Assembly (NCBI RefSeq): GCF_004010195.1
Contig: NC_057718.1
Location: 98,625,646-98,689,645, forward strand
DNA: 64,000 nt
Reading direction: 5' to 3'
From: Chiloscyllium plagiosum
Lineage: Eukaryota
Part shown: in pieces, positions 1,960-58,918 of the stretch
How positions within the stretch are numbered: position 1 is the first letter of the stretch
Layout: each line of letters starts with the position of its first letter
The notes under the pieces: model-generated
Told to the model about the DNA's origin: nothing
Databases searched by the model: none
Seen by the model: the letters and a program-made list of their open reading frames with translations, nothing else
Program-made: the position numbers and the translations under genes

Positions 1960-2312
1960 CGCTTCTCACTACCTCAGAAAGGCAACTAACATCATCAAAA
2001 ACCCCTCCCTGAATCGTTGTAATCCCTTCCAACCCCTTCCATCAGGCAGAAGATACAAAAGCTTAAAATCACATACCAACAGGTTCAGGAACAGCTTTTA
2101 TTTCTAGACTTCTGAATGGACCTCTAAAATTTCAAATCTAATGTTAATCTTGCTTTTTGTCCACCTGCTTTGCAGCCGTAACTTTGTATTCCTCACTCTG
2201 TTCAATCACCGTATGATTTTTATATGCTATGATCTGACTATTCTGCACGCGAAACAAAACTTTTCGCTGTACCTAGGTACATGAGACAGTAATAAATCAA
2301 ATCAAATCAAAT
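1960..2312 (+). mobile_element. Rex1-like LINE 3' end
   Basis: LPSGRRYKSLKSHTNRFRNSF motif; aataaatcaaatcaaatcaaa tail. Confidence 0.75.
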
Positions 2313-3054
2313 TATCCACAACCTTACATATTTTGCTAACAGTGGCATCCAGTAGATGGTGCTATCTGCATATAACCATGGCAGTTGATTATACTTGTGT
2401 ATCCTTTTCATTAAATACAGAGTAATTTCAAAGTTAAGCCTCAGACCCACAATTCCTTTTTTTTGAGGTTTAGTTGTTGTTGTTCCAAGCGATAGGGTTT
2501 GAGTTTGACTTGCAAATTATCTACACCAGAGTTCCACCAGTTCTCAAGTGAATGTATATTAAATTACTGGGGAACTGGGTACTGGCAGAAAATATGTCTG
2601 TCACCATAGATTTGGCTATTGGCAGGACAGAGAGGTTAACACCTGCAGTCCCAGAAATACAGCCATTTACAGCTGAATTGTAACTGATCTCAGTCTGCAT
2701 AAAATAGAAACTTTTTTCTTTCCTTCCAGTGATGGTTCAGTACTATAATGAAGATGGGTGATCCCAATATTAATGTCTAATATCGAGTGGACTTGTGTAT
2801 TATGTAGGGACACCTCAATTTATGAACATTCAACTTCTGAACACTATTACATATGTACGTGATCCCACACAGAGGTATAACTTTAAAGATATGACATACA
2901 TCATTGCCTGTACTTACAAACAGCTCCTTTACATTGTCCCGCATTATCCTCTAAATTGCTTGTTAATCGACTTGTAAACAAACTCCAGAATGGAACCCGT
3001 TTTCAACCTGGGGACTGCGTGTTTCTATATCTGTGTCCCTTGCCGCCACAAGAC

Positions 3055-3995
3055 ATATAAAACCTGTGCTCATACCTCGCCCCTTCACCTCTGTCCAAGG
3101 CGCCAAAGGATCCTTCCACATCCGGCAGAGATTTTCCTGCACATCCTGCTAATCTACTGTGTCCGTTACTCTCAATGTAGTCTTGTCTACATTGGGGAGA
3201 CAAGATGCAAACGTGTGGAATGTTTCAGGAAATATCCCTGGGACACATGCACCAAACAAGCCCTGTGAGCAGCCACTTCAAACTCCACCCACACTCCCCC
3301 CCACCACCCCCCAATCTTCCGCCTTGGGACCGTCTAACCACATAGCATCAGCGTTGACTTCACCAGTTTCCTTGTCTCCCCTTCCCTCACCTCATCCCAG
3401 ATCCTACCCTCAAACTCGTTACCACCCTCTTGAACTGTCCTACCTGTCCAATTTCCATCTCAGCAAGAGGCCCAGCAATCACTTTGCTAGCTTCCCACAG
3501 AGTTCTAGGGTACACCTGATCAGGTCCTGGGGACTTATCCACTTTTATCTGTGGTTGATCTGTATTTTACTCCATTTCACATTACCCTGTAGCCCTTAAC
3601 CTTTGACCTTGCAAAAACAATGCTTTTTAAATTTTCAATTCACCCAGTTTCAGCAGATGTTCTGAAGAATGTGTTCCAGATTTCCATACTCCTTTGTACG
3701 ATGAGGTACCTGCTGACATTATCCCTGACATTCTGTCAGTCTGATCTGAAGGTTGTTTCCATGCACCTTCCTCCCTGACCTACCACCATCACCCCCCCCC
3801 CCCCCCACCTGCATCACCTTACCGGTTACCTTCCTCTCAGCTCCACCTCCACTCTCCTATTTATCCATCAGCCCCCTTCCACGCCCATCCCCCAATATTC
3901 CTGATGAAGGACTTGTGCCCGAGCCATTGATTCTCCTGCTCCTCAGATGGTGCCTGACTTGCTGTGCTTTTCCAGTGCCGCACGTTTTGGAACTG
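3055..3995 (+). mobile_element. Penelope-like element fragments
   Basis: KTCAHTS...LIYCVRYSQCSLVYIGET (GIY-YIG endonuclease) and a terminal repeat near 3900. Confidence 0.75.
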
Positions 3996-5849
3996 GATCA
4001 ATGTCATGGAATGTCCACACGTAAATAAAGGGTGATTTGGTGGACGAGATACCAGCCTCTGTGGAGTTATTTCAATCTGTGCTCATGAGACAATCTCTCC
4101 AAACCTGGGAACTTTCTCGTGAACCATTTCTGAACTGGTTTTGATGAAATGACTTTCTGACTTTGAAAAGAACAAATCAATTTTCAAAGGACTGATAAAC
4201 TAAAATTCATTTCTCCTCCACTTTATAGCCTAAGTTCTCAAATAATAAGAATACTATTATAATGTGATGTAGTATAGTAAAGGCCATGTTCATCTTCAGG
4301 GCAAGGAATATGTTTGACTTCTTACAAATTTCTCATCCAGTGTATGTAGAGGCATGTGAATTAATCACCTCATAATCAATTACTTCTTATGGGAGCCATT
4401 TAATTCTTAAAAAGGTTCTTGTTAGTGCTAGAAATGTTAAATACCTGTACTATGCAGATATTTCTTTCTTCCAAACTTGTGAATCAGCAATGCTGAAAAA
4501 GGTGGCATAGAATATTAATTAATCATTACTGCCTTATTTAATAAACACAAACCTGTTTTGAAACATGCTATGGCATTTGATTGATACTGTAATGTATTGC
4601 AAATTACATTTTGCATTCACTTGAAGCTACTGTACTCACATAGTGTCATACAGCATGGAAACAGACCCTTCGGCCAACTTGTCCATGCCGGCCAAGTTTC
4701 CAGTCTCATTTGCCTGCATTTGGCCCATATCCCTCTGAACCTTTCTTATCCATGTGCCTATCCAAATATGCGAGAAATAATGAATACTTCAAGTTTTAAC
4801 ATCACATGTTGCAGTCCTGGTTAATAGTGAATATTGCTGGATCATATTGTTTCCTCTCAGGAACTTCACAAATACAGACCAAGACTTCTTCATGACCAGA
4901 TTTTCTCCCATACCCACAATTGGCCATATAATATCTTCAATATTTAGGCTATGTTTTCCATGAATGAAAGCAATGGATTATGTCCTAGGTTATAGGGCAT
5001 AGGTTTAACATGAGAGAGGAAAGATTTAAAAGGGACCTGAGGGGCAACCTTTTCATGCAGAGGCTGATGCGTGTATGGAATGAGCTGCCAGAGGAAGCAG
5101 TGGAAACGGTACAATTACAACATTAAAAAGGCATCTAGATAGGCAAATGAATAGAAAGGGTTTAGAAGAATATGGGCTAAATGCTGGCAAATCAAACTAG
5201 ATTAATTTAGGATATCTGGTTGTCATGGACAAATTGGACTGAGTGGTCTGTTTCCATGCTGTAGAGGTCTATGACTCTATGACCAAGACTACCCTGCTTT
5301 CCTCCAAGGCCTTTCTAAAGGTGTAATGCCTATAACTGCTCATAGTACTCCAGGTGTGATTTAACTAGGGCTTTGTATCGCTGAAACATGACTTCTGCCC
5401 CATGTATTTTAGTTCCCTAGATATAAAGGAGAGGATTCCATTGATCCTTTTGGTCATTTTCTGTACTCATCCATGACATTTAATGATTTTTAACACGTCC
5501 CCCCACACAGTCTCATTGGTCCGTAATTGTTTCAAGCTCTTTAGGAGCTTTAATTTTTTTTTTGTTTTTATTTTACTTTCAGCTTTAAAGTGGGTGATCT
5601 CACATTTCTGTAAACTGAAATCCATTTGGCACAATTTTTCCCATTCTGCTAATCCATTAACTATCATCATCCAAAAAGCTTAAGTGTCACCTACCTTTGT
5701 GTTGTCAGCAAGTATGTATATTTAGTTTTCTTTCCCATCATCTAAGTCATTAATTAATTCAATACATAATTGAGGCCACATTGGAAGTGTGCACAGAAGA
5801 CATACAGATTTTGTTTCCAAAGAACACCTGGAGTTCACTCATCAGAACC

Positions 5850-9339: not shown

Positions 9340-11316
9340 GCTTATACACAAAAGTGTAAAGACATGGATGATATAGAATGTAGGGAAATACATGGTGACA
9401 TCTTGAAAAATGTCCATATTATAGAGAAGTAAGTGCTGGATGTCTTGATACACACAAAAGTGGATAAATCCCCAGGACCTCATCAGGTGTACCCTAGAAC
9501 TCTATGGGAAACCAAGGAAGTGATTGCTGGGCCTCTTACTGAGATATTTGTATCATTGATAGTCACAGGTGAGGTCCGGAATATTGGAAGTTGGCAATCT
9601 GGTGTCACTGTTTAAGAAAGGTGGTAAGGACAAGACAGGGGACTATAGACCAGTGAGCCTGACATCGGTGGTGGGCATGTTATTGGAGGGAATCGTGAAG
9701 GACAGGGTGTACATGTATTTGGAAAGGAAAGGACTGATTAGGGATAGTCAACATGGCTTTGTGCATGGGAAGTCATGTCTCGTTTTTTGAAGAAGTAACA
9801 AAGAGAATTGATGAGGGCAGAACGGTGGGCGTGATCAATATGGACTTCAGTAAGGCGTTTGACAAGGTTCCCCATGGGAGACTGGTTAGCAAGGTTAGAT
9901 CTCATGGAATACAAAGAGAACTAGCCACTTGAATATAGCATTGGCTCAAAAGTAGAAGACAGAGAGTGGTGGTGGAGGGTTGTTTTTAAGACTGGAGGCC
10001 TGTGACCAGTGGAGTGCCACAAGGATCGGTGCTGGATCCACTACTTTTTGTCATTTATATAAATGATTTGGATTTGAACATAGGAGGTATAGTTAGTAAG
10101 TTTGCAGATGACACCAAAATTGGATATGTAGTGGACAGCGAAGAAGGTTACTTCAGTTTACAACAGGATATAGATCAGATGGGCCAATGGGCTGAGAAGT
10201 GGCATATGAAATTTAAATTAGATAAATGTGAGGTGCTGCATTTTGGGAAAGCAAAACTTAGCAAGACTTATACACTTAATTCCTGATGAAGGGCTTTTGC
10301 CTGAAATGTCAATTTTTCTGCTCCTCGGTTGCTGCCTGACCTGCTGTGCTTTTCAAGCATCACTCTAATCTTGACTTAATGGTAAGGTCTTAGGGAATGT
10401 TGCTGAACAAAGAGACCTTGGAGTGCAGGTTCATCTCTCCTTGAAAGTTGAGTCGCAGGTAGATAGGATAGTGAAGAAGGTGTTTGGTATGCTTTCCTTT
10501 ATTGCAAGTTTTGTGACCTTTATTGGTTAGAGTATTGAGTACAGGAGTTGAGAGGTCATATTGCGGCTATACGGGACATTGGTTAGGCCACTTTTGGAAT
10601 ATTGTGTGCAGTTCTGGTCTCCTTCTATCAGAAAGATGTTGTGAAACTTGTAAGGGTTCAGAAAAGATTTACAAGGATGGTTGCCAGTGCTTGGAGGACT
10701 AGAGGTTGAATAGGCTGGGGCTGTTTTCCCTGTAGCGTTGGAGGCTGAGGGGTGACCTTATAGAGGTTTACAAAATCATGAGGGGCATGGATAGGATAAA
10801 AAGTCTCTTCACTGGGGTGGGGGACTCAAGAACTAGAGGGCATAGGTTTAGGGTGAAAAGGGAGAGATATAAAAGAGACCTCAGGGGCAACTTTTTCATG
10901 TAGAGGATGGTACATGTGTGGAATGAGCTGCCAGAGGAAGTGGTGGAGGCTGGTACAATTGCAACATTTAAAAGGCATCTAGATGGGTGTATGAATAGGA
11001 AGTGTTTGGAGGGATACAGACTGGGTGCTGGCAGGTGGGACTAGATTGGGTTGGCATGGACGTGTTGGACCGAGCGGTCTGTTTCCATGCTGTGCATCTC
11101 TATGACTCTAGGATGGTACATGTGTGGAATGAGCTGCCAGAGGAAGTGGTGGAGGCTGGTACAATTGCAACATTTAAAAGGCATCTAGATGGGTGTGTGA
11201 ATAGGAAGTGTTTGGAGGGATACAGACTGGGTGCTGGCAGGTGGGACTAGATTGCGTTGGCATGGACGTGTTGGACCGAACGGTCTGTTTCCATGCTGTG
11301 CATCTCTATGACTCTA
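9340..11316 (+). mobile_element. CR1 LINE (RT to 3' end) with a short Penelope insert at 10281-10380 and a tandemly duplicated 3' end
   Basis: [29 protein letters not shown] motifs; ctatgactcta tail; insert flanked by acttaat repeats. Confidence 0.92.
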
Positions 11317-13545: not shown

Positions 13546-14265
13546 TGCTAGTGTGGATGAAATGATATCAGTCCTAGCCCAGAGTGCGGTTCAACAATCG
13601 GTAACGTTTATTGCTACAGTAACGCCGGCAGAGACCAACCGAGGTCCGAATCTCAGCTGCTCTCCTGTTCCCGCGCGCTGCTACATATTATATACTTTTA
13701 ATTGTCAGGATGTGTGGAATTTGAGGATGAATGGGATGATAGTTCCCTATCATCACTGGAGTAGGTGCAAATAGAATGTTTCCTGCCGTCCCAGGAGAGT
13801 TGCAGGGCACGCACAATAGCGTGCTAATTGGTTTATGTAAAACGGGTCCATGTATTATCTGCTTGTCTCTCTCTGTGAGGGCAGGGGCTAGCACCCCCCT
13901 TTGTTCCCTTGGGGTGTTGGTGTGTATTGGCCTATCCGTTCCTGTCTGGTGGATGCCTGTCCTTTGTGTCAGGGTGGTTCCATATCGATGGATATGGGTG
14001 TGTTTCAGTCAGTCTCTTGATGTGATTAGGAGATGGGTTTCCATATTAATTAATTGGTCTATGAGTCATGGGTAGTGTTGGTATAGTGTGGATTTTATCT
14101 GTCCTCTGTCTCCTATCTCCCGGTCACGTGGGCGGACCGGCAGCTGCTGAGTTCTGTGGGCTTAAAGCTGCGACTGTTGTTTAAAACACAAAATGAATTC
14201 CTATAGTTTCCTGATGTAGGCATAGCCCCGTGGCAAAAGCAGGGCGGCTCTGATGCCCGCTTGCA
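13546..14265 (-). repeat. 3' LTR (720 bp)
   Basis: Starts with TG right after PPT+AC; TATA-like tatataa near 13690; AATAAA at 13607-13612; ends CA next to the TSD. Confidence 0.88.
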
Positions 14266-14267
14266 GT

Positions 14268-14401: not shown

Positions 14402-16521
14402 TCACATTAACTTAAGCCCTGTGAGCTCACGGTGCCTGATCGCCCGCCAGGAGTCGATGGCGTGGAGCATGGTCTTCCTGGCTTTTCGTTTTTTGTGCTG
14501 GCAGCATGAATGACACGCCAGCAGGAGACAGGCCAGAGCCAGTAGTACCTGCATGCCTACAATGGTGTGCGAGATGATTCGGATCCAGGGATGGATGTTT
14601 ACGTTCAAGCCCCAATCCCACACCCTCTGTGCCCACCCCTGCGACTGCAGAGCTGTGTCTGTGTCCTCCTCTAGGTCCTTTACATGCGACTGCAACTAAT
14701 GATACAATTTCACTGAGTGTCCTATCCGGGTCCTAAGCTCCCATAAGACCTCAGCCAAATGTGGGATGAGGGCTTGTTCAGGCTCCTGATATTCCCTGAG
14801 GGCGTCCCTGAATTTATCAGTGGTTTGTAGGACTCGGGGTTCCGTCGTCAGACCTCTGAGATGTGAACTTGCCCAACCGTGACTGGGCGCCTGGGGGTGA
14901 AGCAGAACTTGTGCTGGGGAATCGGGCACTGCAGTCCATTATACCAAAATGAGGTTTCAAGAGTGGAGACACAATATCGTCCCGCCCCCCACCATACCCC
15001 ACCCTAGTGAAGTGGGGGCCCGTGGGTTCGATTTCAAGGGTGCAGCCCTGTGTCCGGTTGAACCCGCAGTCCGCTGTTTCACTCCTTCGTAAGGGGTGAG
15101 GGCAGATGGTAATTGCCCCCTGCTGCTTGCAGCCTGTAAGCGGCACCCCGTACACAGCGCCGTTTCGAGATATGGCTGTGTGGTGAGTTAATCGATATTT
15201 GAGGGAAGTGTTTTCCCGTATGACTCCGATGTTCTCATGTGAAACAGGGGAAATGGCCCCGACTTTAGGGTGACCACGGGGATCAGGACAATCCCGACTC
15301 CTGTCGCCTCACTGACCTCAAAGTCGGGCATCACTGTGTATACTCTGGTCATACCCTTCAGAGTCCAGCTGTCGAGCGGCCCGGAGCGCCCCGCGAGTGA
15401 AGCCAGTTTGGCACTGTCGATCCAGTCGGGCACCTCCCCCCTTTGGACCTGGTCAAGATTATGCCGGACCTGGGCTACCATCCACAGGCCATACGCATGG
15501 CACAGCTGTCCCTCGTGGATATGGGCCGTGTTTTCCCTTTCCCGGTCTATAAGGCGGTTAATGGTGTGGGCGTGTGTCTCCGGGACTGCAATGCCGTCGA
15601 GCTGGGTGTATGCTCCCTCTTCCCCCAGGCTTGCCTGGTCTGCCTGATTTGTGAGAGACCTCTGTATCAGGTCCCTCATTACTCCTTTTAGTTGCTCGAC
15701 CTTTTCGTTAAGGCCCTGGATGTCTAGGGAGTTTACTAGGGATGTCCCCGTGTTGAGTCCTGTGAGAGCATCATTGACTATGTCCCGTCTGTGTCATTGT
15801 TTGTGCGTGTTATGTATATCATTTCAGTAGTGGGTTGCCCCCATGGCGTCTATGGCCCTCTCTATAATCTCCTTCCTCATCATGGCGTATAGGTTGCGTA
15901 CCTGTGCTGTGCAATAGTCCAGTACCCGGATGCCCAATATATTGACCAGCACAGGCACGACCTCGTGTCGGACATTGTCATAAAGGGTCTCTGCCTCATC
16001 CCACAATACCAGTCCCCCCGCGGGCCCCGGTCCAAGAGAGGGGCATGGCAATATCTCGGGAGCCGTGGTCGGGGGCGGTGTGGTCGGGGCGGGTGGAAAG
16101 CACAACTACAAAGAGACTACTGCAGCATTAGTAGGCTCGTAATATCCGCAAACAGACAGATCCCGTACAGTAAAGGCATCAAAGGCCGGGGCAGAGGAGA
16201 GGTCCTCTGGGATGGCACACATTGTCCCGAACATGCAACCCCCAAGTCCATTGCCTCAGCACGCCGGAGGCAGGTCGGCCGCGGGTTGCGCTCCGACGTG
16301 CAGAATAAACAGAGTGTCTATACGCCCGGGAGAACTTCCAGCCAGGCGTTGTAGAACGCGTCGATCACATCGGGCTTGTCCTTTGCAGGAATACAGATGG
16401 CGTCGGACGCGTTGAAGGCAATACCGTGGTGGTAGAAGTTGTCATATATTTCGGGGAAGGAAGGCACTAGTCGTAGGGCGAAGAGGAGAGCAGGGAGGAG
16501 AGCGGTACACCGGTGAAGCAT
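14402..16521 (-). pseudogene. env: env (class I fusion protein), with several stops and frameshifts
   Basis: Signal peptide MLHRCTALLPALLFALRLVPS; Pro/Thr stalk; furin-like site [*]HRR|DIVNDALTGLNTGTSLVNSL; heptad repeat; Cys-rich ectodomain; Trp-rich juxtamembrane segment; TM IISHTIVGMQVLLALACLLLAC; basic tail KKRKARK. Confidence 0.88.
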
Positions 16522-16690: not shown

Positions 16691-17341
16691 TTAAGGGTAG
16701 GGCTTAAGCTGGGACCAATGTTTCCACCTGCCCTTTCCCTTCATGTCGACACAGGCGCACGTGTCGCTGGTGAGGATGATTTCGTGCGGTCCCAGCCACC
16801 GGGGGGGGCGAAGCCAGGCCGGTCGGGGGCGGCCCTGACCAGGACTTTGTCCCCAACGCCGGGAAGGGGTGGGGCGGGCAGATGCGGCTGCAGTTTTGCC
16901 TGGTCCCTAATGTCCTGCTGGTCGCGCGCGGTTTGTCTAAGGGCCCGCAGCTGCGTGTCCAGCTGCCTGATATAGCGCATCACGGGCGGCACGGTGGCAC
17001 AGTGGTTAGCACTGCTGCCTCACAGCGCCAGAGACACGGGTTCATTTCCCGCCTCAGGCGACTGACCGGCCCTCCCTGTCATGAGCTCGAAGGGAGTGAG
17101 GCCAGTGGAGCGGCCTGGGTGGCCCTTAAGCGCATCAGTATGCAGGGCAGAACGTCTACCCAGCCCTGCCCTGTTTCGGCGATCGCCTTTGCGATCGCTG
17201 CTATGAGGTCCGGTTCATGCACTCGACCATCCCGGAGCTCTGGGGATGGAACGGGACGTGGAAGCGCTGTCTGATGCCTAGGAGGCGGCAGGCCAGTTTC
17301 ATTGCGCGTCCGGTGAAGTGCGTGCCCTGGTCTGAATCTAA
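16691..17341 (-). pseudogene. pol: pol: integrase core and C-terminal domain (frameshifted, interrupted by a SINE head)
   Basis: Manual translation DSDQGTHFTG...HVPFHPQSSGMVE (D-35-E spacing), W-x-x-x-LP...RATPGRSTGLTPFELMTGR, VGDKVLV...RWLGPHEI...WKHWSQLKPYP*. Confidence 0.92.
16984..17065 (+). mobile_element. tRNA-derived SINE 5' head only, inside the integrase
   Basis: gggcggcacggtggcacagtggttagcactgctgcctcacagcgcc...cgcctcaggcgactgac matches the heads of the SINEs at 1-305 and 25516-25811. Confidence 0.9.
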
Positions 17342-17344
17342 ACA

Positions 17345-18070
17345 TTTTGAATTGACCTGCAGGGTCCAAGGCTTTTTATAAAGTGAAAGGTTAGGGTTTC
17401 TTCTACTCTTTGTGTGAAGAAATGATTTCTGACATTATCCTTTTGTTGTCTGGCTTTAATTTTACACAGTCTTTCTCTTGATTCTCCTGCCAGAGGAAAT
17501 CGTTTCTCTCTGTCTGCCCTTTCAACTCTTTTAGTTATCTTAAACAATCCAATTAAATCACCCTTCATCACCTTCATTGTATGGAGTATTTGGGTCTAAT
17601 CAATGTGGAATTCATGCTCAAATTCTAATTGTTCTGTCATATTTTTGCCAATAGTCTTCCTTTCCAGCAGTTTCCTGGACATTATCTCCCCAGTTGAAAC
17701 TTTATTGCTGGAACAGCACAGCAGGTCAGGCAGCATCCAGGGAACAGGAGATTCGATGTTTCGGGCACAGGCCCTTCTTCAGGCCCTTCTTCAGGCACAG
17801 GCTTCTCCCCAGCTCAAGTTAAGCAAATCTTGCAGCCTCATTTTAAATCCTTAAAAATTTGGCCTTTCCAATTTGAGCATGAGGTTCCATCTGCATTCCC
17901 GCAAGGTAAACATAGAAATTTGTTCTTGTTAACTTTGCTATTTGGCTTCCTCTTCGATTCTGGCAGATTAACTTGCGAACTTTCTGGGATGTCTTTTGGA
18001 AAGCCAATAACCTAGTCCTACAAATGGCTTTGTCAAGGTCAATCTCCATGGCAGCATGAATCATATGAGT
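17345..18070 (-). mobile_element. Highly decayed CR1 ORF2 relics inside the provirus
   Basis: KGDLIGLFKITKRVER...NHFFTQRV motif, plus a degenerate (D)FQKAFDKV-like stretch near 17980; short Penelope-type piece at 17705-17800. Confidence 0.65.
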
Positions 18071-18469
18071 CTTCTTGTATCCAGCCAGATAGAAATGTTC
18101 ATTAGCTAACCTTTAGTTTCCAACTATTGGACTCAAGTATCTAATTTAAAGCAAAAAAAAAATCATAGTCTGGCATTCTCAATACCTGAGACTTGTCGAC
18201 TAACAGTCTATTCACTTTGAACACAATCTACCATTGTCTACAAGTGTGAATACCTTCCCATGAAAACAACTAAGGAACACCTTTAATCTTAACAATCCAG
18301 TTTGCTGTCAGTGAAATTCAGATCTGCCTCTATGTTACCCTAATTTACTGACAGCCCCAAAATGTAACCATCTTGTAAAAATAATTGTTTGGTTGTACTG
18401 AACTTAAAACATGTCTAAAAAGAGACATAAGGTTGAAACTTTTTGGCTTGCACTCATCAGGATTGAAAT

Positions 18470-18569
18470 GAAGCATAGCCTTAATAAGTTTCTTATTCTT
18501 GTCGGCTATAAAACGGGTAAGGGAACCCTCTGGCCCCCAATCTAAGTCTTCGGCCGTGCTCCCACCCAT
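18470..18569 (-). pseudogene. gag: Probable gag N-terminus (truncated after ~30 codons)
   Basis: ATG-Gly start MGGSTAEDLDWGPEGSLTRFIADKNKKLIKA at the end of a GC-rich leader, downstream of a splice-donor-like GCG|GTGAGA (18797). Confidence 0.5.
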
Positions 18570-18878
18570 GGTAGGGGCGCAGCGGGTGTAACTTAACAGA
18601 AGCTAATTTAAAGTAAAGCTAGCAGGCGTGCTAAGGGATGTTGCTGGCACTGGCTTATTAATCTCCCAGTCGGGGAGCCCACTCCCTGTAAGTTGAACCC
18701 TAGCCCCGCGGGTCAACCTGGGCAGGGGGGGGATAGTTACAGGCGCGTGTCGATTCCTGAGCGCGCAACCCCGGGTTTCCGTGAGTCTCTCTCTCACCGC
18801 TTGACATTCAGCGGCCGTGTGTACCCCACAAACACTGGGCGTGAACCAGGGGCCCGAGTGCAAGGGGAGGGGGCGTGA

Positions 18879-19002
18879 AGCTGCTGAGTTCTGTGGGTTT
18901 AAAGCTGCGACTGCTGTTTAAAACACAAAATGAATTCCTATAGTTTCCTGATGTAGGCATAGTCCCGTGGCAAAAGCAGGGCGGCTCTGATGCCCACTTG
19001 CA
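18879..19002 (-). repeat. 5' LTR remnant (first 124 bp of U3; rest of LTR and PBS deleted)
   Basis: Matches 14142-14265 with 4 substitutions. Confidence 0.9.
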
Positions 19003-19712: not shown

Positions 19713-20476
19713 AGGAGAAAGTGAGGACTGCAGATGCTGGAGATCAGAGCTGAAAAATGTGTTGCTGGAAAAGCGCAGCAGGTCAGGCAGCATCCAAGTA
19801 ACAGGAGAATCGACGTTTCGGGCATAAGCCCTTCTTCAGGAATGAGGAAGGTGTGCCAAGCAGGCCAAGATAAAAAGTAGGAAGGAGGGACTTGGGGAAG
19901 GGGCGTTGGGAATTCGATAGGTGGAAGGAGGTTAAGGTGAGGATGATAAGCCAGAGAGGGGGTAGGGGCGGAGAGGTCGGGAAGAAGATTGAAGGTCAAA
20001 AAGGCGGTGCTGAATCCGAGGGTTGGGACTGAGATAAGATGGGGTGAGGGGAAATGAGGAAGCTGGAGAAATCTGCATTCATGCCTTGTGGTTGGAGGTT
20101 TCTAGGTGGAAGATGAGGCGCTCTTCCTCCAGGCGTCGTGTTGCCATGGTCTGGCGATAGAGGAGTCCTTGGCGGAGTGGGAGGGGGAGTTAAAGTGTTC
20201 TGCCACGGGGCGGTTGGTTTGGTTGGTGCAGGTGTCCCAGAGGTGTTCTCTGAAACATTCCGCAAGTCTCCCCAATGTAGAAGAGGCCACATCGGGTGCA
20301 GCGGATGCAGTAAATGATGTGTGTGGTGGTGCAGGTGAATTTGTGATGGATATGGAAGGATCCCTTGGGGCCTTGGAGGGAAGTGAGGGAGGAGGTGTGG
20401 GCGCAAGTTTTGCATTTTTGCAGTTGCAAGGGAAGGTGCCGGGAGTGGAGGTTGGGTTAGTGGGGGGTGTGGACCT
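19713..20476 (-). mobile_element. Penelope-like element 3' part (GIY-YIG endonuclease plus terminal repeat)
   Basis: CKTCAHTSSLTSLQGPKGSFHIHHKFTCTTTHIIYCIRCTRCGLFYIGET. Confidence 0.88.
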
Positions 20477-25515: not shown

Positions 25516-25811
25516 TAGTGGTTAGCACTGCTGCCTCACAGCGCCTGAGACCCGGGTTCAAATCCCGCCTCAGGCGACTGACTGTGTGGAGTTTGCACAT
25601 TCTCCCCGTGTCTGCGTGGGTTTCCTCCGGGTACTCCGGTTTCCTCCCACAATCCAAAGATGTGCAGGTCAGGTGAATTGCCCATGCTAAATTGCCCATA
25701 GTGTTAGGTAAGGGGTAAATGTAGGGGTATGGGTGGGTTGTGCTTCGGTGGGAGGGTGTGGACTTGTTGGGCCGAAGGGCCTGTTTCCACACTGTAATGT
25801 AATCTAATCTA
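25516..25811 (+). mobile_element. HE1-like SINE (young)
   Basis: Nearly identical in structure to 1-305; taatctaatct tail. Confidence 0.9.
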
Positions 25812-28216: not shown

Positions 28217-28471
28217 TTGTTACATTCAGTTTAAATTACAGAACCACTTTGACTGAGTAGGTTTTCAAGGCACATGATTCCGTTCCCATGATCTGTTTAT
28301 GTTGTGGTACTGTTTGTACTACACTGCAATCCCGAATATGCAAGATCCGTGCATGTAACACACAAAAATTGTGAATGTGACCTCAAACAACTTGCATTTG
28401 CACCATCGTTGTGGAAGTGTAGATATCAGAAAGTGATACTATATCTCTAACTCACATGATGTTGGGAAAGG

Positions 28472-28675
28472 GGTGGCATGGTGGCTCAGTGGTCAGTACT
28501 GCTGCCTCACCGTGCCAGGCACCTGTGTTTGATTCCAGCCTTTGGTAACTGTCTGCATAGAGTTTGCATATTCTCTTTGTGCCTGCGTGGGTTTCCTCCC
28601 GTTGCTCCAGTTTCTTCCCAAAGTGCAAAGATGTGCAAGTTAGGGGGATTGGCCATGCTAAATTTATCATAGTGA
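28472..28675 (+). mobile_element. HE1-like SINE (partial)
   Basis: tRNA-like head plus conserved body. Confidence 0.8.
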
Positions 28676-33009: not shown

Positions 33010-33228
33010 GAGCTGAAAATGTGTTGCTGGAAAAGCGCAGCAGGTCAGGCAGCATCCAGGTAACAGGAGAATCGACGTTTCGGGCATAAGCCCTTCTTCA
33101 GGAAATGTCGGGCTTATGCCCGAAACGTCGATTCTCCTGTTCCCTGGATGCTGCCTGACCTGCTGCGCTTTTCCAGCAACACATTTTCAGCTCTGATCTC
33201 CAGCATCTGCAGACCTCACTTTCTCCTC
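33010..33228. mobile_element. Short palindromic Penelope-derived element (inverted terminal repeats)
   Basis: ~84-bp arms that are near-perfect reverse complements around ttcttcaggaaatgtc; same family at 11665-11800 and 47915-48057. Confidence 0.85.
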
Positions 33229-33994: not shown

Positions 33995-36600
33995 TGCATT
34001 CCTTCTGCCATTCTTTGGCCCATTGGCCCATCTGATCAAGATCCCATTGTATTCTGAGGTAAACTTCGTCGCTGTCCATTATACCCCCAATTTTGGTATC
34101 ATCTGCAAACTGACTAACTATACCTCCGATGTTCACACCCAATTATTTATATAAATGATGAAAAGCAGTGGACCCAGCACCAATCCTTGTAGTACACCAC
34201 TGGTCACAGGCCTCCAGTCTGAAAAGCAACCCTCCAACTTCTACCTTTGAGCCAGTTTCTGTATCCAAGTGGCTAGTTCTCCCTGCATTCTATGTGATCT
34301 AACTTTGCTAACCAGTCTACCATGAGGAACCTTGTTGAACGCCTTTCTGAAGCTCATATTGATCACATCCACAGCTCAGCTCTCATTATATTCTATTCAG
34401 TCCTCGCCTTTCCAAATACATGTATATTCTCAGGATTCCCTCCAACAACTTACCCACCACCAATGTCAGTATTACCTGTCTATAGTTCCCTGGCTTTTCC
34501 TTACCACCTTTCTTAAATAGTGGCACCACGTTAGCCATCGTCCAGTCTTCCGACACCAGACCTGTGGTTATCGTTGATACAAATAACTCAGCAAGGGGTC
34601 AGCAATCACTTCCCTAGCTTCCCACAGATTTCAAGAGTACACCTGATCAGGTCCTGGGGATTTACCCACTTTAATACGTTTAAAGCAGACCAGCACCTCC
34701 TCTTCTGTAATTTGGACAGTTTTCAAGATGTCGCTATTTATTTCCCCATATTTTTCCATTTCCACAGTAAACACTGATGCAAAATACTATTTAAGTATCT
34801 CCCCCATCTCCTGCAGTTCCACACAAAGGCTGTCTTGCTGATCCTTGAGGGGCCCCATTCTCTCCCTCGTTAACTTTTTGTCCTTGATGTATTTGTAAAA
34901 ACCCTTTAGATTCTTCTTAACCCTATTTGCTCAAGCTATCCCATGTCCCCTTTTGCCCTCCTGATCTCCCTCTTATGTATACTCCCCTACTGCCTTTATA
35001 CTCTTCTAAGGATTCACTTGATCTCTGCTATCTATACCTGACCAATGCTTCCTTCCTTTTCTTGACCAAAACCTCAGTTTCTCTAGTTACCTACCATTGT
35101 CTCTGGACTCTCATTATCTCATTTTTGAAGGCTTCCAATTTTCCGGCTGTCCCTTTACCTACAAACATCTGCCCCCAATCAATTTTTGAGAGTTCTTGCC
35201 TAATACCGTCAAAGTTGGCCGTCCTCCAATTTAGAACATTAACTTTTAGATCAGGTCTATCCTTTTCCATCACTATCTTAAAATTAATAGAATTATGGTC
35301 ACTGGCCCTAAAGAGCTTCCCCACTGACACCTCAGTCACTTACTCAGCCTTATTTCCCAAGAGTAGGCCAAGTTTTGCACCTTCTCTAGTAGGTACATCT
35401 ACATGTTGAATCAGAAGATTTTCTTGTACATACTTAACAAATTCCTCTCCATCCAAGCACTTAACACTATGCCAGTCAATGTTTGGACAATCCCCAACCA
35501 TAACCAACCAATTATTCTTACAAATATCTGAGATCGCCTTACAAATTTGTTTCTCAGTTTCCTGCTCACTATAGTACCTCGCACCAGTTCCTCAGCCATG
35601 CATTCATCTGCTCTATTCTCTTATACCTACCCTCACTAGCTCGCTCCAGGAGTAATTACTGCCCTTGTGGACTTCCTTTTTAAATTCCTGCCTAACTTCC
35701 CATATTCTGTCCTCAGAATCTCATCCTTTTCTCTTCCTATGCATTAGTTCCGATGTGTACAGCAACCTCCTGCTGGTCCCTCTCCCCTTTGAAAATATTC
35801 TGCATCCTCTCCAGGGAGGCAGCACACCATTCTGCTATCTCACTGTCGGCCACAGAATCATCTGTCTGTGCCTCTAACTAGAGAGTTCCCTATCGCAATC
35901 AATCACTTGGAATCTGACGTTACCCTCATTACATTAGAGCCAGTCCTGGAATCAGAAAACTGGTTGTCAGTGCTGAATTCCCCTGGAGGCCATCACCCCC
36001 TACATTTTCCAAAACTTGTTTAAGATGGGGATAGCCACAGGAGACTCCTGCATGACCTGCCCTCCTCTCCTACCTTTCCTGGAGGTCCCCTATCTACCTG
36101 ACAGTATCTTCAGTTTATCTTCCTTCCTGCAATGCCCCTAGCTCCTGTAAATTCCTCATTGCCTCTAAATGCCTCTCCAACTGATCCATATGATCTGATA
36201 GAATTCGCAATCAAGCATACTTACTGCAAACATAATCATCAGTAACATTGAAACTCTTTGTAATTTCCCACATCTGACAGGAAGAGCACCTCACTCTACT
36301 AAAGGCCATTTTTGCACCTTAATAACGTACAGACCTAGAAAATAGCACAGTGATACTGGTCTAAAAATACTGCTCCAGGTTAACTTAATATCTACGTTTT
36401 ATATTTTTAAAGTTACACATATCGATAAAGCATATAAACAAAAGGGAACCCACTCTACTCAATGATTGGAGATTTACACAAAAAAAAGTCGGGTTTCATT
36501 TAAAAAAGCGACTTAACTGCTCCCCTCTGTGAGTTCGCCCACATAGGCTTCTCCAAGGTCAACTTTGAATTGCACTGTTTGTTAATTTTTCTTAGATGAC
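33995..36600 (-). mobile_element. Long, internally deleted CR1 LINE (endonuclease/RT remnants and upstream region)
   Basis: SDHNSINFKIVMEKDRPDLKVNVLNWRTANFDGIRQEL; KFADDTK near 34090. Confidence 0.8.
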
Positions 36601-41501: not shown

Positions 41502-42001
41502 NNNNNNNNNNNNNNNNNNNNNNNNNNNNNNNNNNNNNNNNNNNNNNNNNNNNNNNNNNNNNNNNNNNNNNNNNNNNNNNNNNNNNNNNNNNNNNNNNNN
41601 NNNNNNNNNNNNNNNNNNNNNNNNNNNNNNNNNNNNNNNNNNNNNNNNNNNNNNNNNNNNNNNNNNNNNNNNNNNNNNNNNNNNNNNNNNNNNNNNNNNN
41701 NNNNNNNNNNNNNNNNNNNNNNNNNNNNNNNNNNNNNNNNNNNNNNNNNNNNNNNNNNNNNNNNNNNNNNNNNNNNNNNNNNNNNNNNNNNNNNNNNNNN
41801 NNNNNNNNNNNNNNNNNNNNNNNNNNNNNNNNNNNNNNNNNNNNNNNNNNNNNNNNNNNNNNNNNNNNNNNNNNNNNNNNNNNNNNNNNNNNNNNNNNNN
41901 NNNNNNNNNNNNNNNNNNNNNNNNNNNNNNNNNNNNNNNNNNNNNNNNNNNNNNNNNNNNNNNNNNNNNNNNNNNNNNNNNNNNNNNNNNNNNNNNNNNN
42001 N
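41502..42001. other. Assembly gap (500 N)
   Basis: Run of N. Confidence 1.
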
Positions 42002-45212: not shown

Positions 45213-46214
45213 CAAATAAAATTTGGCACCAAGCCTCAAAAGATGGTATCAGCCTCGATAAGCTTTGAGGAGGAAAGAGAGTCAGTGAGGCAGAGAGAGA
45301 TGTGGGAAGGGAATGCCAGAGCTGAGGGCTTTGGCAGCTGAAGACTTGACCACCAACTGTGAAGCAATTAAAATCAGGGAAGCTAAAGAAACCAGAATTG
45401 GAGGTGTGCAAAAATCCCAGAAGGTTATGGGATTGCAGGAGACAGGTAATAGCCATAGGGAGGACAAGATCACAGTAGCACCTATAAATAGGGATGAGAG
45501 CTTTAAAATCAGGTACCTGTCAGAGCAAGTACCAATTCTAGCCAACGAACAGGAGTCTTGGTTGAAGTGAGGATACAGGCAGCTGAGCTTTGGATAAGCT
45601 CAAGATTCATGGTCTGCTTATACTACTGGTGGTTCAATCATTTTCAAACTTAACATTTGCACATTTTATTCAGGAATTTGGGGGGCACCAATGATGAAGA
45701 GGAGTCAGAGAATCAAAACGCCACCATTCTTAAAATATCAAACACATGCTGCAGGTCAGTGCAGCTACAACAAATGGGAATAACTTCAGGAGGAACATCA
45801 TTTAAGCGTAAAGCACTGTGGATGATGAAAATCTGAACTGAGAACAGAAAGTGCTGGAGAAACTCAACAGCTCTGGTAGCACCTGTGGAGAGAGAAACAG
45901 AGTAAACATTTCATGACCGATATGAGTCTTCTTCAGCCCAAACCTAATCCTTCTCACTGAAGAAGAGTCATACCAAACTTGAAATATGAACTTTGCTGCC
46001 TGACCTGTTGAGTTTCTCCAGCACTTTCTGTTCTCAGTTCAGATTTTCATCATCCGCAGTGCTTTACGCTTAAATGATGTTCCTCCTGAAGTTATTCCCA
46101 TTTGTTGTAGCTGCACTGACCTGCAGCAATGCACATTAGGTGAGCAATATTGCCCTCCTTAGTGAGGATGCATGCAGTAGCTTATAACCAAAAGTGAACA
46201 TTGTCCATCATCAG

Positions 46215-47915
46215 AAACCATAGAACATAGAACATTTCAGCGCAGTACAGGCCCTCCAGCCCTCAATGTTGCGCCTACTTGTGCAGCCAATCTGAAGCCC
46301 ATCTAACCTATGCTATTCCATTATCATGTTTATTCAATGTCCCTTTAAATGCCCTGAAAGTTGATGAGCCTACTACTGTTGCAGGCAGGTTGTTCCATGC
46401 CCTTACTAGTCTCGGAGTAAAGAACCTACCTCTGACATCTGTCCTATATCTATCACCCCTCAATTTAAAGCCTTGTCCCCTCGTGCTGGCCATCACCATC
46501 CGAGGGAAAAGGCTCTCACTGTCCACCCTATCTAATCCTCTGATCACCTTATATGTCTCTAATAAGTCACCTCTCAGCCTTGTTCTCTCTAACAAAAACA
46601 TCCTCAGGTCCCTCAGCCTTTCTTCATAAGACCTTCCCTCTATACCAGGCAACATCCTGATAAATCTCCTCCACATCCTTTCCAATGCTTCCACATCCTT
46701 CCTTTAATGCAGTGACCAGGACTGTACACAATACTCCAAGTGCAGCCACAGCAGAGTTTTGTATAGCTGCAACATGACCTCATGGCTTTGAAACTCAATC
46801 CCTCTACCAATAAAAGCTAACACACTTTATGCCTTCTTAACAACCCTATCAACCTTGGTGGCAACTTTCAGGGATCTATGTACATGGACACTGAGATCTC
46901 TCTGCTCATCCACACTACTAAGAATCTTACCAGAGTCCAGTACTCTGTATTCCTGTTACTCCTTCCAAAGTGAATCATGACACACATTTCTGCATTAAAT
47001 GCATTTGCCAACTCTCAGCCCAGCACTGCAGCTTAACTATGACCCTCTATAACCTGTAACATCCTTTCGCACTGTCTACAACTCCACTGATCTTAGTGTC
47101 ATCCGCAAATTTACTAACCCATCCTTCTACGCTCTCACCCAGGTCATTTGTAAAATGACAAACATCAGTGGCCCCAAAACAAATTCTTGCGGTACACAAA
47201 TGTTCCAGGATGAACATTTCCAATCAACCACCACCCTCTGTCTTCTTACAACTAGCCAATTTCTGATCCAAGCTGCTAAATCACCATCAATCCCATGCCT
47301 TCGTATTTTCTGCAATAGCCTAGAGTGGGGAACTTCGCAAACGTTTTACTGAAATCCCTCTGTTTGGTCACCTTCTCAAAGAAGAGGTATGATCTACACT
47401 TCACCAAACAGTGTTGACTATCCTTAATCAAATTATTCCTTTCTAGATGATTATAAATCCTGCCTCTTATAATCCTTTCCAACACTTCACCCACACCTGA
47501 AGTAAGGCTCACTGGTCTATAATTAGCAGGGTTGTCTACTCCCCTTCTTGAACATGGGGCCAATATTTGCTATCCTCCAGTCTGCTGGCACTATCCCAAT
47601 CGACAATGATGATATAAAGATCAAAGCCAAAGGCTCTGCAATTTCCTCCCTAGCTTCCTAGCGAATCCTAGGATAAATCCCATCCAGCCCAGAGGACTTA
47701 TCTATTTTCACACTTTCCAGAATTGCTAACACCTCCTCCTTATGACTTCAATACCATCTAGTCTAGCAGCCTGTATCTCAGTATTCTCCTCAACAACATT
47801 GTCTTTTTCCTGTGTGAATACTGACAAATAATATTTATTTAGCGCCTCCCCTATCTCCTCTGATTCCACGCACAACTACCCAATACTGTCCTTGACTGGT
47901 CCTCATCTTACTCTA
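46215..47915 (-). mobile_element. CR1 LINE (RT to 3' end)
   Basis: NYRPVSLTS; LERMWRRFIRMLPG...FFTPRLVRAWNNLP; ctatgtt tail. Confidence 0.9.
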
Positions 47916-49236
47916 GCTGAAAATGTGTTGCTGGAAAAGCGCAGCAGGTCAGGCAGCATCCAGGGAACAGGAGAATCGACGTTTCGGGCATAAGCCCTTC
48001 TTCAGGAAATCCTTTTCAGCTCTGATCTCCAGCATCTGCAGACCTCACTTTCTCCTCCCTGATCTTACTCTAGTCTGGTATAACTTCACAACAGTCTCCC
48101 ATGTGAAGTATAATCTCTGACGGTCTGTTTATTAAATTTAAGTGGTTTAAAAACTGAAACTTGACTGCAGTAAATAAAATGACAAGCCGCCTGGGAGGTT
48201 AGGTCAGTGGTTGGATGGTAGATTAGTGATGCCAACAGCAAGGGTTCAATTCCCCTCTGTGGGTTTCCTCCTGGTACTCCAGTTTCCTCCCATACTCGAA
48301 AGATGGAAGGTTAGGTGGATTGGCCATGCTAAATTGCCCTGTATTGTCCAGGAATGTGTATGTTAGGTAGGTTAGCCATGGGAAATGCAAGGTTATGGGG
48401 ATAGGGTGGATCTGGGGTGGGATGCTCTTCAGAGTGTTGGTGCAGACTTGATGGGCTGAATGGCCTCCTTCACACTGTAGGGGTTCTATGACTGTGTGCC
48501 GTTTACACATTCTCCTCGTATCTATGTGTATTTCCTCCGGATGCTCCAGTTTTCTCCCATAATCCAAAGATGTGCAGGTTAGATGGATTGGCCATGGGAA
48601 ATGCGTGGTTACGAGGTTGGGGGAGTGTCAGTGGTTCTTAGTTGTAAGCTCTTCAGAAGGTTGGTGCAGATTCGATAGGCTGAATGGCTTCTATCTGTAC
48701 CGTAGGGATTCTATTGTTCTAGAATCTTGGTGTCTAAATGCTACAGATGCAATTATAATCGCCTTTTTTCTCCCTCAGGTAAATCTGCTTCTTCCTTTGA
48801 ATGTAATACAGCCACAAGAACACAAAAATGGAGTTCCCTGATTTAATGCTGCAGTCACTGATAAATGTTGAACAAAAAAATGAAAGAACTCTCATTTATG
48901 CACTAACTTTCATGATATTACAATATCCAAACACAATTTGCAACCAATTAATTAATTACTATTGGTTACTTACCAAAACTGCATGAGACTGACAGCAGAG
49001 CTTTTGCTTTGTTAATTAATGAGCCACATGCTGGTTTTGAAAGAACTACATGCAGGTTTTCTGTGTGTGTTACTGGTCTTTGGACTGCAATGGATGCTTA
49101 CCTACTGCAAGCTCAATGAGTTGGGTATTTGGGCTTACTTTTGGCAAGATTTTATATCGTCATTGAGATCTAAAGCACAGCAAAACGCCCTTCAGCCCAT
49201 AATTTCTGTGCCAGTCAAAAACGATCACCTAACCAT

Positions 49237-58203: not shown

Positions 58204-58465
58204 TTAGATTAGATTACTTAGAGTGTGGAAACATGCCCTTCAGCCTAACAAGTCCACACTGACCCTCCAAAGAGCAACCCACCCAGACCCATTCCCCTGC
58301 TTTTACCCCTTCACCTAACCTGCACATTTTTTTTTGGACTGTGAGAGGAAACCCACACAGACACAGGGAGAACGTGAAAACACCACACAGACAGTTGCCT
58401 GAGGTGGGAATTGAACCCGGGTCTCTGGCACTATGAGGCAGTAGTGCTAACCACTGCACCACATG
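58204..58465 (-). mobile_element. HE1-like SINE
   Basis: Similar to 1-305. Confidence 0.85.
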
Positions 58466-58639: not shown

Positions 58640-58918
58640 TTAGATTGGATTCCTTATTGTGTGGAAACAGGCCCTTTGGCCCAACAAGTCCACACCGACC
58701 ATCTAAAGAGCAACCCATCCTGACTAATGCACCTAACATTACAGGCAATTTAGTATGGTCAATTCACCTAACCAGTACACCTTTGGACTGTGAGAGGAAA
58801 CCAGAGCAAATACACGCAAACACAGGGAGGATGTGCAAATGCCACAAGGTGGGGAATTGAACCTGGGTCCCAGGTGCTGTGACGCAGCAGTGCTAATCAC
58901 TGAGCCACTGTGCCACCC
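58640..58918 (-). mobile_element. HE1-like SINE
   Basis: Similar to 1-305. Confidence 0.82.

Follow-up and report, generated by a model that had tools for sequence, protein, structure and literature searches.

Dead env gene of an internally deleted shark endogenous retrovirus whose intact relatives very probably encode an F-type fusion glycoprotein

Envelope (Env) glycoproteins resembling paramyxo- and pneumovirus fusion (F) proteins have been described in lokiretroviruses (PMC7947760) and in foamy viruses, whose Env was stressed as unlike that of orthoretroviruses (PMC11468914), and shark endogenous retroviruses (ERVs) related by Pol to the snakehead retrovirus are also known (PMC4422223; PMC6001957; PMC8922424). 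Here we analysed an env remnant in a 64,000-nt stretch of the genome of the shark Chiloscyllium plagiosum (contig NC_057718.1, positions 98,625,646 to 98,689,645), hereafter called the window, in which all positions are counted from the first nucleotide. Very probably, this remnant is the dead env of an internally deleted ERV whose intact relatives encode an F-type ("class Ib") class I fusion glycoprotein.

An Env survey in fishes and amphibians screened gamma- and beta-type proteins only (bioRxiv 10.1101/2021.11.23.469661), and all non-foamy amphibian retroviruses in the survey of PMC12690878 carried a gamma-type Env. The Env of walleye viruses is called "distinct" in reviews, with its fold unassigned (PMC9967133); one modelling study reports failed models of the epsilonretrovirus surface subunit, and the row for walleye dermal sarcoma virus (WDSV) in the Viro3D source table has a 0 under "Class I glycoprotein hit". 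Provisionally, the literature searched (without subscription journals and most supplements) held no statement that the Env of snakehead retrovirus or walleye viruses is F-like. Nor did it hold, again provisionally, a description of the shark and frog family reported below, elements of which may be listed in the supplements of the lokiretrovirus, anamniote-Env and Xu 2018 papers. A preliminary description, made from the letters of the window, had proposed a possible undescribed cartilaginous-fish lineage; frogs carry the family too, and snakehead-retrovirus-related shark ERVs were already known from Pol.

The env remnant and its intact relatives

The env remnant lies on the minus strand and covers about 700 codons; its ATG is at 16521, and the TGA that closes it is at 14404-14402 (Table 1). 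Comparison with an intact relative combined with a codon-by-codon scan divided it into five in-frame segments, with six internal in-frame stops and four frameshifts, which bore out the env of that length that had been assembled by joining frames. Every motif listed at that time was located, from the signal peptide to the Cys/basic tail and including the stop followed by HRR. The N-terminal Cys-containing domain on a Pro/Thr stalk was likewise present, but as read earlier it mixes two frames: the reading frame changes after EAMDLG, in line with the relatives. Where the window copy has its broken cleavage motif, the relatives retain an intact R-X-K/R-R (at residue 249 in P0006, the Env of the shark Mustelus asterias). 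The F1-like part that follows opens with the post-cleavage segment and a long heptad helix; after these come beta-rich domains and a second helix, then a Trp-rich stretch, a transmembrane (TM) helix and a tail. The gamma-type CX6CC and immunosuppressive domain had been reported as not visible, in agreement with the absence of CX6CC from all three frames of the remnant and of any PF00429 match, and a Pfam scan of seven env pieces from the window returned no viral family. The window env cannot make a protein, and the locus is an ordinary dead ERV fragment.

The remnant is nevertheless far beyond chance, because it shares 86% protein identity with a Chiloscyllium punctatum entry and 67% with an intact M. 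asterias protein, and has at least 54 DNA matches in its own genome. These DNA matches, found in 3.56 Gb, show 85-100% identity (40 scored of 166 candidates), and an intact-protein query of the same genome gave at least 83 matches (62 scored of 986 first-look candidates); among the matches listed for the protein query, no stop-free single-frame match spanned the whole protein. The C. plagiosum genome thus contains hundreds of members of the family to which the element belongs.

Relatives in other species were retrieved by several searches. A word-based search returned the C. punctatum entry, 553 aa long, and two M. asterias proteins at 67% identity; P0006 is an intact 714-aa M. asterias Env, 67% identical to the window copy, in a cluster of seven sequences. 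An alignment-based word search returned 17 proteins, all of them close shark relatives and none distant. An exhaustive phmmer search of 1.84 billion representatives yielded 58 proteins at E≤0.001, with 39 at ≤1e-10 and 15 at ≤1e-30. The named phmmer matches came from sharks (Chiloscyllium, Mustelus, Heterodontus, Pristiophorus and Heptranchias), a skate (Rhinoraja) and frogs (Pelodytes, Bombina and Mantella, the last with 16 cluster members, 13 of them 677 aa in length). Natural intact copies, a search for which had been suggested at the outset, occur in Mustelus and in frogs.

Some shark entries are chimeric. In the annotated gene models P0034, P0035 and P0048 (Pristiophorus, Heterodontus), Env pieces are fused to host proteins (Niban-like, an isoform of the F-box protein fbxo15, and cadherin-related), and these models are either annotation artefacts or exonised ERV fragments. 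One of them, P0035, gave a match to PF12259 that remained below threshold (E 0.0011).

The fold of an intact Env

The fold was taken from the intact relative P0006, modelled by AlphaFold2 with a 55-row alignment, rather than from a repaired window copy. Residues 160-230 and 340-560 of the model reached a predicted local distance difference test (pLDDT) score of 80-93, while the mean was 65 and the predicted template-modelling (pTM) score 0.41. A Foldseek search of the PDB returned 500 or more matches, of which 243 had E≤0.001, and all rows listed (ranks 1-49) are paramyxo-/pneumovirus F proteins, headed by post-fusion F of respiratory syncytial virus (3rki_B, 3.2e-10) and F of human parainfluenza virus 3 (3.4e-10), then Langya, Newcastle disease, Nipah and Hendra viruses. 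VIA-align aligned 997 chains, 108 of which had Z≥8; all 50 entries listed are again F proteins, the best being 1ztm_B (Z 11.8) and 8dmj_A (Z 11.4, root-mean-square deviation 4.5 Å over 278 residues). These matches lent support to the F-like Env proposed in the preliminary description, whose interpretation overall was partly supported.

Because residues 174-570 of the model align to F residues ~26-430 in VIA-align, the F-like part starts right after the Pro/Thr stalk. In terms of this model, what had been described as a segment of ~80 aa is predicted to be F2, the basic motif the F2/F1 cleavage site and the ~460-aa TM subunit F1. The absence of the foamy receptor-binding insert, which had been claimed earlier, was confirmed by the ~80 residues that are all there is between stalk and cleavage site, and these align to F2 itself. 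The P0006 model also has the three-domain head of F-type proteins, in which domains I and II are rich in beta structure and domain III is alpha/beta, together with a long heptad helix at the centre, and its precursor follows the F order of signal peptide, small F2, basic site, large F1, second heptad helix and C-terminal anchor.

Against BFVD, a collection of predicted viral structures, 56 matches were obtained at E≤0.001. They included the Envs of walleye epidermal hyperplasia virus 1 (WEHV-1; 6.7e-13), WDSV (9.9e-11) and feline foamy virus (1.5e-4), together with baculovirus F, mononegaviral F-like glycoproteins and paramyxovirus F0. The first-ranked entry, A0A384ZVF2 (928 aa), carries no name and may be another F-type glycoprotein, from a retrovirus or a fish virus. 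In a language-model search for look-alikes, the clusters indicated were Baculo_F, Fusion_gly and gypsy-env (0.91-0.93), which we treat as a lead only. At the sequence level, phmmer with P0001 and P0006 against the sequences of solved structures gave no match at E≤10, and the A1 profile gave three unrelated matches there (E>0.9). Foamy Env structures were not among the ~50 PDB entries listed, a result that carries no weight either way.

The N-terminal module had no confident fold in the models of P0006 and P0019 (in P0019, residues 1-180 were unfolded, with pLDDT <40), no Pfam relative and no usable match in an atlas search. The idea that other family members carry an Ig-like N-terminal module comes only from the source name of P0019 and a weak V-set match (E 0.045) in P0043.

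The Env of the intact relatives is very probably a type I membrane glycoprotein composed of a signal peptide, the ~120-aa module, a Pro/Thr stalk, an F2-like part, a furin-type site, an F1-like part, an anchor and a tail. By analogy with F proteins and foamy Env (PMC11468914), its precursor would trimerise and be cleaved by furin. The N-terminal module may bind the cell, after which the long helix would extend and the second helix pack back on it, so that the membranes fuse, as in F proteins.

Relation to other retroviruses and competing explanations

A query of a viral-contig collection with a Pol alignment provided 42 reference loci, whereas a scan with the single shark reverse transcriptase (RT) protein found none. 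They include 16 foamy viruses (three of which, L017, L033 and L045, were scanned and scored 1507-1631 bits with PF03408), 12 loci of ~8 kb with a gammaretrovirus-like layout and 8 with a deltaretrovirus-like layout (PF00429 in one Env tested of each), and two ~10-kb elements with a PF00429 Env; epsilonretrovirus features were found in none of the 42. One further locus, L015 (IMG/VR UViG 638276818), is 10,688 nt long, has gag, TAG and pol in one frame, and carries an env of 1134 aa without a Pfam match, the end of which is overlapped by a 3' open reading frame (ORF). Snakehead retrovirus (GenBank U26458) has the same length, 10,688 nt, and the same organisation (PMC12193657), and L015 is apparently this virus.

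We ran the family hidden Markov models (HMMs) against all 208 ORFs of the 42 loci along with 2288 reversed or shuffled decoys. The L015 Env scored 28.6 bits and the best foamy Env 24.5 bits, compared with ≤6.2 bits for decoys; 11 of the 16 foamy Envs exceeded 14 bits with HMM A3, and Env ORFs of the PF00429 type (gamma- and delta-type) stayed below 3.5 bits. With hhalign, the family matched the L015 Env at 93.1% (E 3.2e-7) over 352 columns, pairing P0006 160-566 with L015 512-908, and a 16-row foamy Env alignment at 86% over 100 columns that span ENIG, the paired cysteines, CG...C and G.Y. The likeness to foamy TM at the ENIG and Cys motifs, first noted by eye, is thus real but weak, and the link to the L015 Env is stronger.

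Homology between the shark family and L015 extends across F2 and F1, with a basic cleavage motif at the same place, and both have the same gag-stop-pol read-through. The L015 Env has ~510 residues ahead of its F2-like part, however, whereas the shark family has ~170, and where L015 has an ORF overlapping the env end, the shark element has a 136-nt spacer before the long terminal repeat (LTR). Foamy Env (gp130, PF03408) shares the F-type scaffold, a furin-type site between the subunits and the TM similarity near ENIG, C...C and CG...C, but it holds a ~330-aa receptor-binding domain between its F2-like and F1-like parts (PMC11468914) that the shark Env does without; the leader-peptide subunit and PF03408 of foamy Env are also missing from the shark family. 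Paramyxo- and pneumovirus F proteins (PF00523) agree in fold and domain order (F2, cleavage site, long helix, domains I/II, second helix, anchor), yet the shark family has no sequence-level match to them. The shark Env also has an extra N-terminal module on a stalk fused to F2, with no separate attachment protein evident, unlike a paramyxovirus. WDSV and WEHV-1 Envs are among the best structural matches, with predicted models on both sides, although at 1159-1317 aa they are much longer; no epsilonretrovirus Env appeared among the named phmmer matches, most of the 58 having no name. In topology, a receptor-binding module N-terminal to an F-type scaffold recalls the coronavirus spike (PMC11468914), with no homology claimed; the shark module is tiny by comparison (~120 aa) and joined by a Pro/Thr linker. 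Among Envs with N-terminal placement, the shark family would have a very small module and L015 a region of ~510 aa.

These relationships speak against calling the element "non-orthoretroviral", as had been done, since the same Env type occurs in L015 and in the walleye epsilonretrovirus models and the backbone is orthoretrovirus-like. A full-length family copy, L014, has a gag in which MGGS and a CCHC knuckle are present, separated by an in-frame TGA from a pro-pol with protease, RT with LLQYVDDLL, RNase H and integrase; the primer site after its 5' LTR we take to be tRNA-Pro-like. The Gag features (myristoylation signal, zinc knuckle), the gag-stop-pol read-through and the Pro-like primer site are orthoretrovirus-like. 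The idea of an "own attachment-plus-fusion design" was likewise overstated, with the F-type Env common to other retroviruses and the attachment role purely conjectural.

In phmmer with the shark RT, L015 scored 176.9 bits, L016 121.6, the gamma-like references 82-120 (11 of 12 at 103-120) and the foamy viruses 100-115. A maximum-likelihood RT tree (86 rows, 298 columns) was built with 44 of 99 eligible Pol proteins, chosen by hand as representatives. The shark RT grouped with a Pol whose cluster has a Mustelus protein (the P0081 cluster; support 99/92) and then with two further Pol proteins, one in a cluster with an eel protein (98/75 and 86/47). This group fell between L015 and a large clade of foamy, gamma-like and delta-like references; all 17 foamy RTs formed a clade (100/100) with the shark RT outside it, and a clade consisting solely of the shark group and L015 was just rejected (approximately unbiased (AU) test, p 0.045). 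The RT phylogeny, proposed beforehand as a check, kept the shark RT apart from the foamy viruses, with backbone supports of 37-70; by phmmer score L015 is the nearest reference. We conclude that the backbone is not foamy but a distinct lineage close to the snakehead-like virus, within a basal grade that is poorly resolved. A class I (gamma/epsilon-like) backbone was at first read from PDB matches, best with murine leukaemia virus, and from the read-through; the trees give no support for placement inside that group.

Several points weigh against this reading of the element. The predicted F fold was seen on a 67%-identical relative and not on the broken window copy, the confidence of that model is modest overall, and its template-modelling scores reach only ~0.3, owing to its monomeric, post-fusion-like form. 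No Pfam Env family appears to be matched by sequence: PF00523, PF03408 and PF00429 found no match in P0006, P0005 and P0004 at E≤10 or in 19 proteins at E≤1, nor were they among the first 25 of 48 families listed for 55 members (E≤1). The post-cleavage segment is weakly hydrophobic, unlike a classical F fusion peptide (mean Kyte-Doolittle value 0.39 over the first 20 residues after the cleavage site vs 1.79 for the anchor). In addition, the role of the N-terminal module as an attachment domain is a guess from its position, the name given to L015 was drawn from length and gene order alone, and the backbone supports make the RT placement weak.

The explanation that competes best, though we consider it unlikely, is a recombinant origin, in which an orthoretrovirus-like gag-pol took over its F-type env from a donor that was snakehead-retrovirus-like, foamy-like or non-retroviral, and the Env is silent on where the lineage comes from. 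ERVs of fishes and amphibians commonly swap their Envs (PMC12690878; bioRxiv 10.1101/2024.07.05.601823), the closest structural matches include F-like glycoproteins of arthropod viruses, and the RT clade with L015 was rejected, if only just, even though the Envs are homologous. Co-inheritance, on the other hand, fits the observation that Mustelus supplies both the nearest Pol and an intact Env, and both RT (no other reference above 121.6 bits) and Env are nearest to L015; with such low backbone support, the tree could not reveal a conflict.

A lokiretroviral identity, under which the element would belong to a described lineage with a mononegaviral-F-like Env and hold nothing new, is much less probable. 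Lokiretroviruses occur in fishes and amphibians, and their F-type Env has a signal peptide, an RXKR site, a coiled coil and an anchor (PMC7947760); the shark RT sits in a poorly resolved basal grade and its neighbouring Pol sequences come from frogs and coelacanth. Set apart by that published description, the lokiretrovirus Env has a reported PF00523 match (2.2e-7), for which there is no counterpart among the family scans listed here. Sharks are not among the hosts listed in the available text, in which "shark" and "cartilaginous" have 0 occurrences (PMC7947760). The shark RT moreover scores highest with L015, and the best tree puts it above L015, not outside all retroviruses.

More improbable still is a spumaretroviral, foamy-like ERV with an Env from which the receptor-binding insert was lost. 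The F scaffold common to both Envs (PMC11468914) and the profile similarity in the TM part would suit it. The RT lies outside the foamy clade, however, Gag opens with a myristoylation-type start, contains a CCHC knuckle and is joined to pol through an in-frame stop, no PF03408 match was obtained, the N-terminus is an ordinary signal peptide instead of a leader-peptide subunit, and the extra domain precedes F2 where the foamy one lies between the F2-like and F1-like parts. Ubiquitous as gamma-type Env is in fish and amphibian ERVs (bioRxiv 10.1101/2021.11.23.469661; PMC12690878), the chance that this is the TM protein of a gamma- or epsilon-ERV diverged past recognition is negligible, and we regard that reading as already refuted by structural matches that, as listed, are all F-type proteins, by the lack of a PF00429 match where five control Env ORFs match at 1e-11 to 1e-176, and by the absence of CX6CC from the ectodomain; the 460-residue size of the F1-like subunit and its beta-rich domains likewise speak against it.

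The F-type Env of the shark family bears on the origin of the retroviral envelope gene, an open question for which the lokiretrovirus authors set out four scenarios (PMC7947760). Sequence ties the family both to the foamy Env and to that of an orthoretrovirus-like fish virus, and structure ties it to walleye epsilonretrovirus Env; these links, on an orthoretrovirus-like backbone, suggest that F-type Env is more widespread in lower-vertebrate retroviruses than the literature searched says. The small N-terminal module would be a third way to equip an F scaffold with a receptor-binding part, next to the internal insert of foamy viruses and the separate protein of paramyxoviruses. It is possible, if rather doubtful, that the F-type (class Ib) Env was the original retroviral envelope and the gamma-type of most orthoretroviruses a later replacement. 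If so, F-type Env would have been kept in lokiretroviruses, foamy viruses, snakehead-like viruses, walleye epsilonretroviruses and the shark/frog family, the last of these being the most compact retroviral F scaffold, F0 with a small, exchangeable module for attachment at its N-terminus, borne on a mucin-like stalk. The natural intact copies in Mustelus and frogs make the envelope question testable.

The provirus and surrounding repeats

The provirus containing the env remnant was bounded at 19002 and 13546 on the minus strand and is an internally deleted element of 5,457 bp (Table 1). Paired LTRs (TG..CA), a target-site duplication, a polypurine tract and the order gag-pol-env were all found, and the ATG of gag lies at 18569, opening a myristoylation-type MGGS... 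start. Missing from it are the remainder of the 5' LTR, the primer-binding site (present in L014), ~0.6 kb of leader and nearly all of gag-pol, and the full-length copies L011 and L014 regain similarity exactly at 18879. The two LTRs, with 4 differences over 125 aligned places, offer too few changes for dating. The integrase remnant is frameshifted.

Table 1. Features of the env remnant and its provirus (positions in the window)
Feature	Position	Strand	Basis or remark
Target-site duplication, 5' copy GACC (element's strand)	19006-19003	-	same four bases directly 3' of 3' LTR
5' LTR remnant, first ~124 bases, starts TG	19002-18879	-	4/125 places differ from 14142-14266
Leader and 5' end of gag	18878-18069	-	matches L014 4262-4677, L011 6533-6948, L010 7524-8320
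Foreign sequence, ~0.7 kb, replacing most of gag-pol	18068-17400	-	unlike full-length copies; common to other deleted copies
LINE-like 3' end	about 17400-17600	-	inside the foreign ~0.7 kb
SINE piece	17693-17803		private to window copy; contigs of two runs join 17684 to 17804
Integrase 3' part: core-domain end and C-terminal domain with WLGPHEIILTSDT	17380-16700	-	rve E 4.4e-4; three-frame reading
Signal peptide MLHRCTALLPALLFALRLVPS	16521-16459	-	aligns to P0006 signal region
N-terminal Cys-containing module, ~120 aa	16458-16097	-	one frameshift, two stops inside
In-frame stop TAG	16320-16318	-	codon scan
Frameshifts	near 16240/16237, 15236, 14988, 14822	-	comparison with intact relative
In-frame stop TAG	16108-16106	-	codon scan
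Pro/Thr-rich stalk PPAPTTPPPTTAP	16096-16058	-	located by motif
CPSLGPGPAGGLVLWDEAETLYDNVRHEVVPVLVN	16045-15941	-	located by motif
F2-like subunit, CPSLGPGPAGGLVLW to just before cleavage motif	16045-15797	-	P0006 model from residue 174 aligns to F from residue 26; start of hhalign match to L015 Env
In-frame stop TGA	15826-15824	-	codon scan
In-frame stop TGA	15796-15794	-	codon scan
Stop+HRR, furin-type cleavage motif broken by in-frame TGA	15796-15785	-	relatives intact at aligned place
F1-like / TM subunit, 460 codons	15784-14405	-	fold of P0006; motifs located
GEVPDWI	15439-15419	-	
ENIG	15236-15225	-	
CKQQGAITICP	15131-15099	-	
DCGFNRTQGC	15071-15042	-	
CPIP..FCF	14928-14899	-	
In-frame stop TGA	14850-14848	-	codon scan
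In-frame stop TAG	14698-14696	-	codon scan
Trp-rich stretch	14635-14585	-	
TM helix	14578-14513	-	
Cys/basic tail	from 14515	-	
Polypurine tract AAAAGGGGGGAC	14277-14266	-	directly 5' of 3' LTR
3' LTR, 720 bp, TG...CA	14265-13546	-	in 7 loci, similarity to other copies runs out at 13546-13555
Target-site duplication, 3' copy GACC	13545-13542	-	

The deleted layout, with the gag start, ~0.7 kb of long interspersed element (LINE)-like sequence, the integrase tail and env (17400-18865 in the window), recurs at L002/L009 and L003/L010, the flanks of which differ from those in the window. Because the layout recurs at three or more sites with different flanks, the deleted env-bearing form seems to have been copied. 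It looks like a mobilised non-autonomous derivative, presumably copied with the proteins of full-length relatives. Upstream of another copy, L009 1-7767 holds an array of ~7.7 kb that is open in several frames on both strands and whose unit reads like …TGKQTHTLYRETGPHTVQGNRPTHC… (a minisatellite).

Two kinds of short interspersed repeat recur in the window. Copies of a tRNA-like short interspersed element (SINE) head lie at 16984-17066, as a fragment inside the integrase remnant, and at 231-301, 25517-25582, 28471-28553, 58392-58456 and 58852-58918; single-cell RNA reads fall on this head, their loose ends pointing to many other loci. A second repeat of ~90 bp occurs on both strands at 17692-17783 and about 10 further places, among them 10282-10359, 19754-19840, 33011-33102, 47915-48006 and 55982-56059, with very deep coverage in two runs. 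As to expression, raw reads of run X16 (about 2% of the run read) fell on SINE pieces only, and run X17 had no reads on the locus.

Elsewhere in the window, frameshifted pieces of a LINE-type RT (…FVIYINDLD…) occur at 9433-10286 on the plus strand, a 206-bp tandem unit is present twice at 10904-11315 with 99% identity, and a 500-N assembly gap spans 41502-42001. GC skew ranges from -0.27 to -0.41 in the 2-kb bins 2001-4000, 34001-36000, 46001-48000 and 54001-56000, which suggests strand-biased simple or interspersed repeats.

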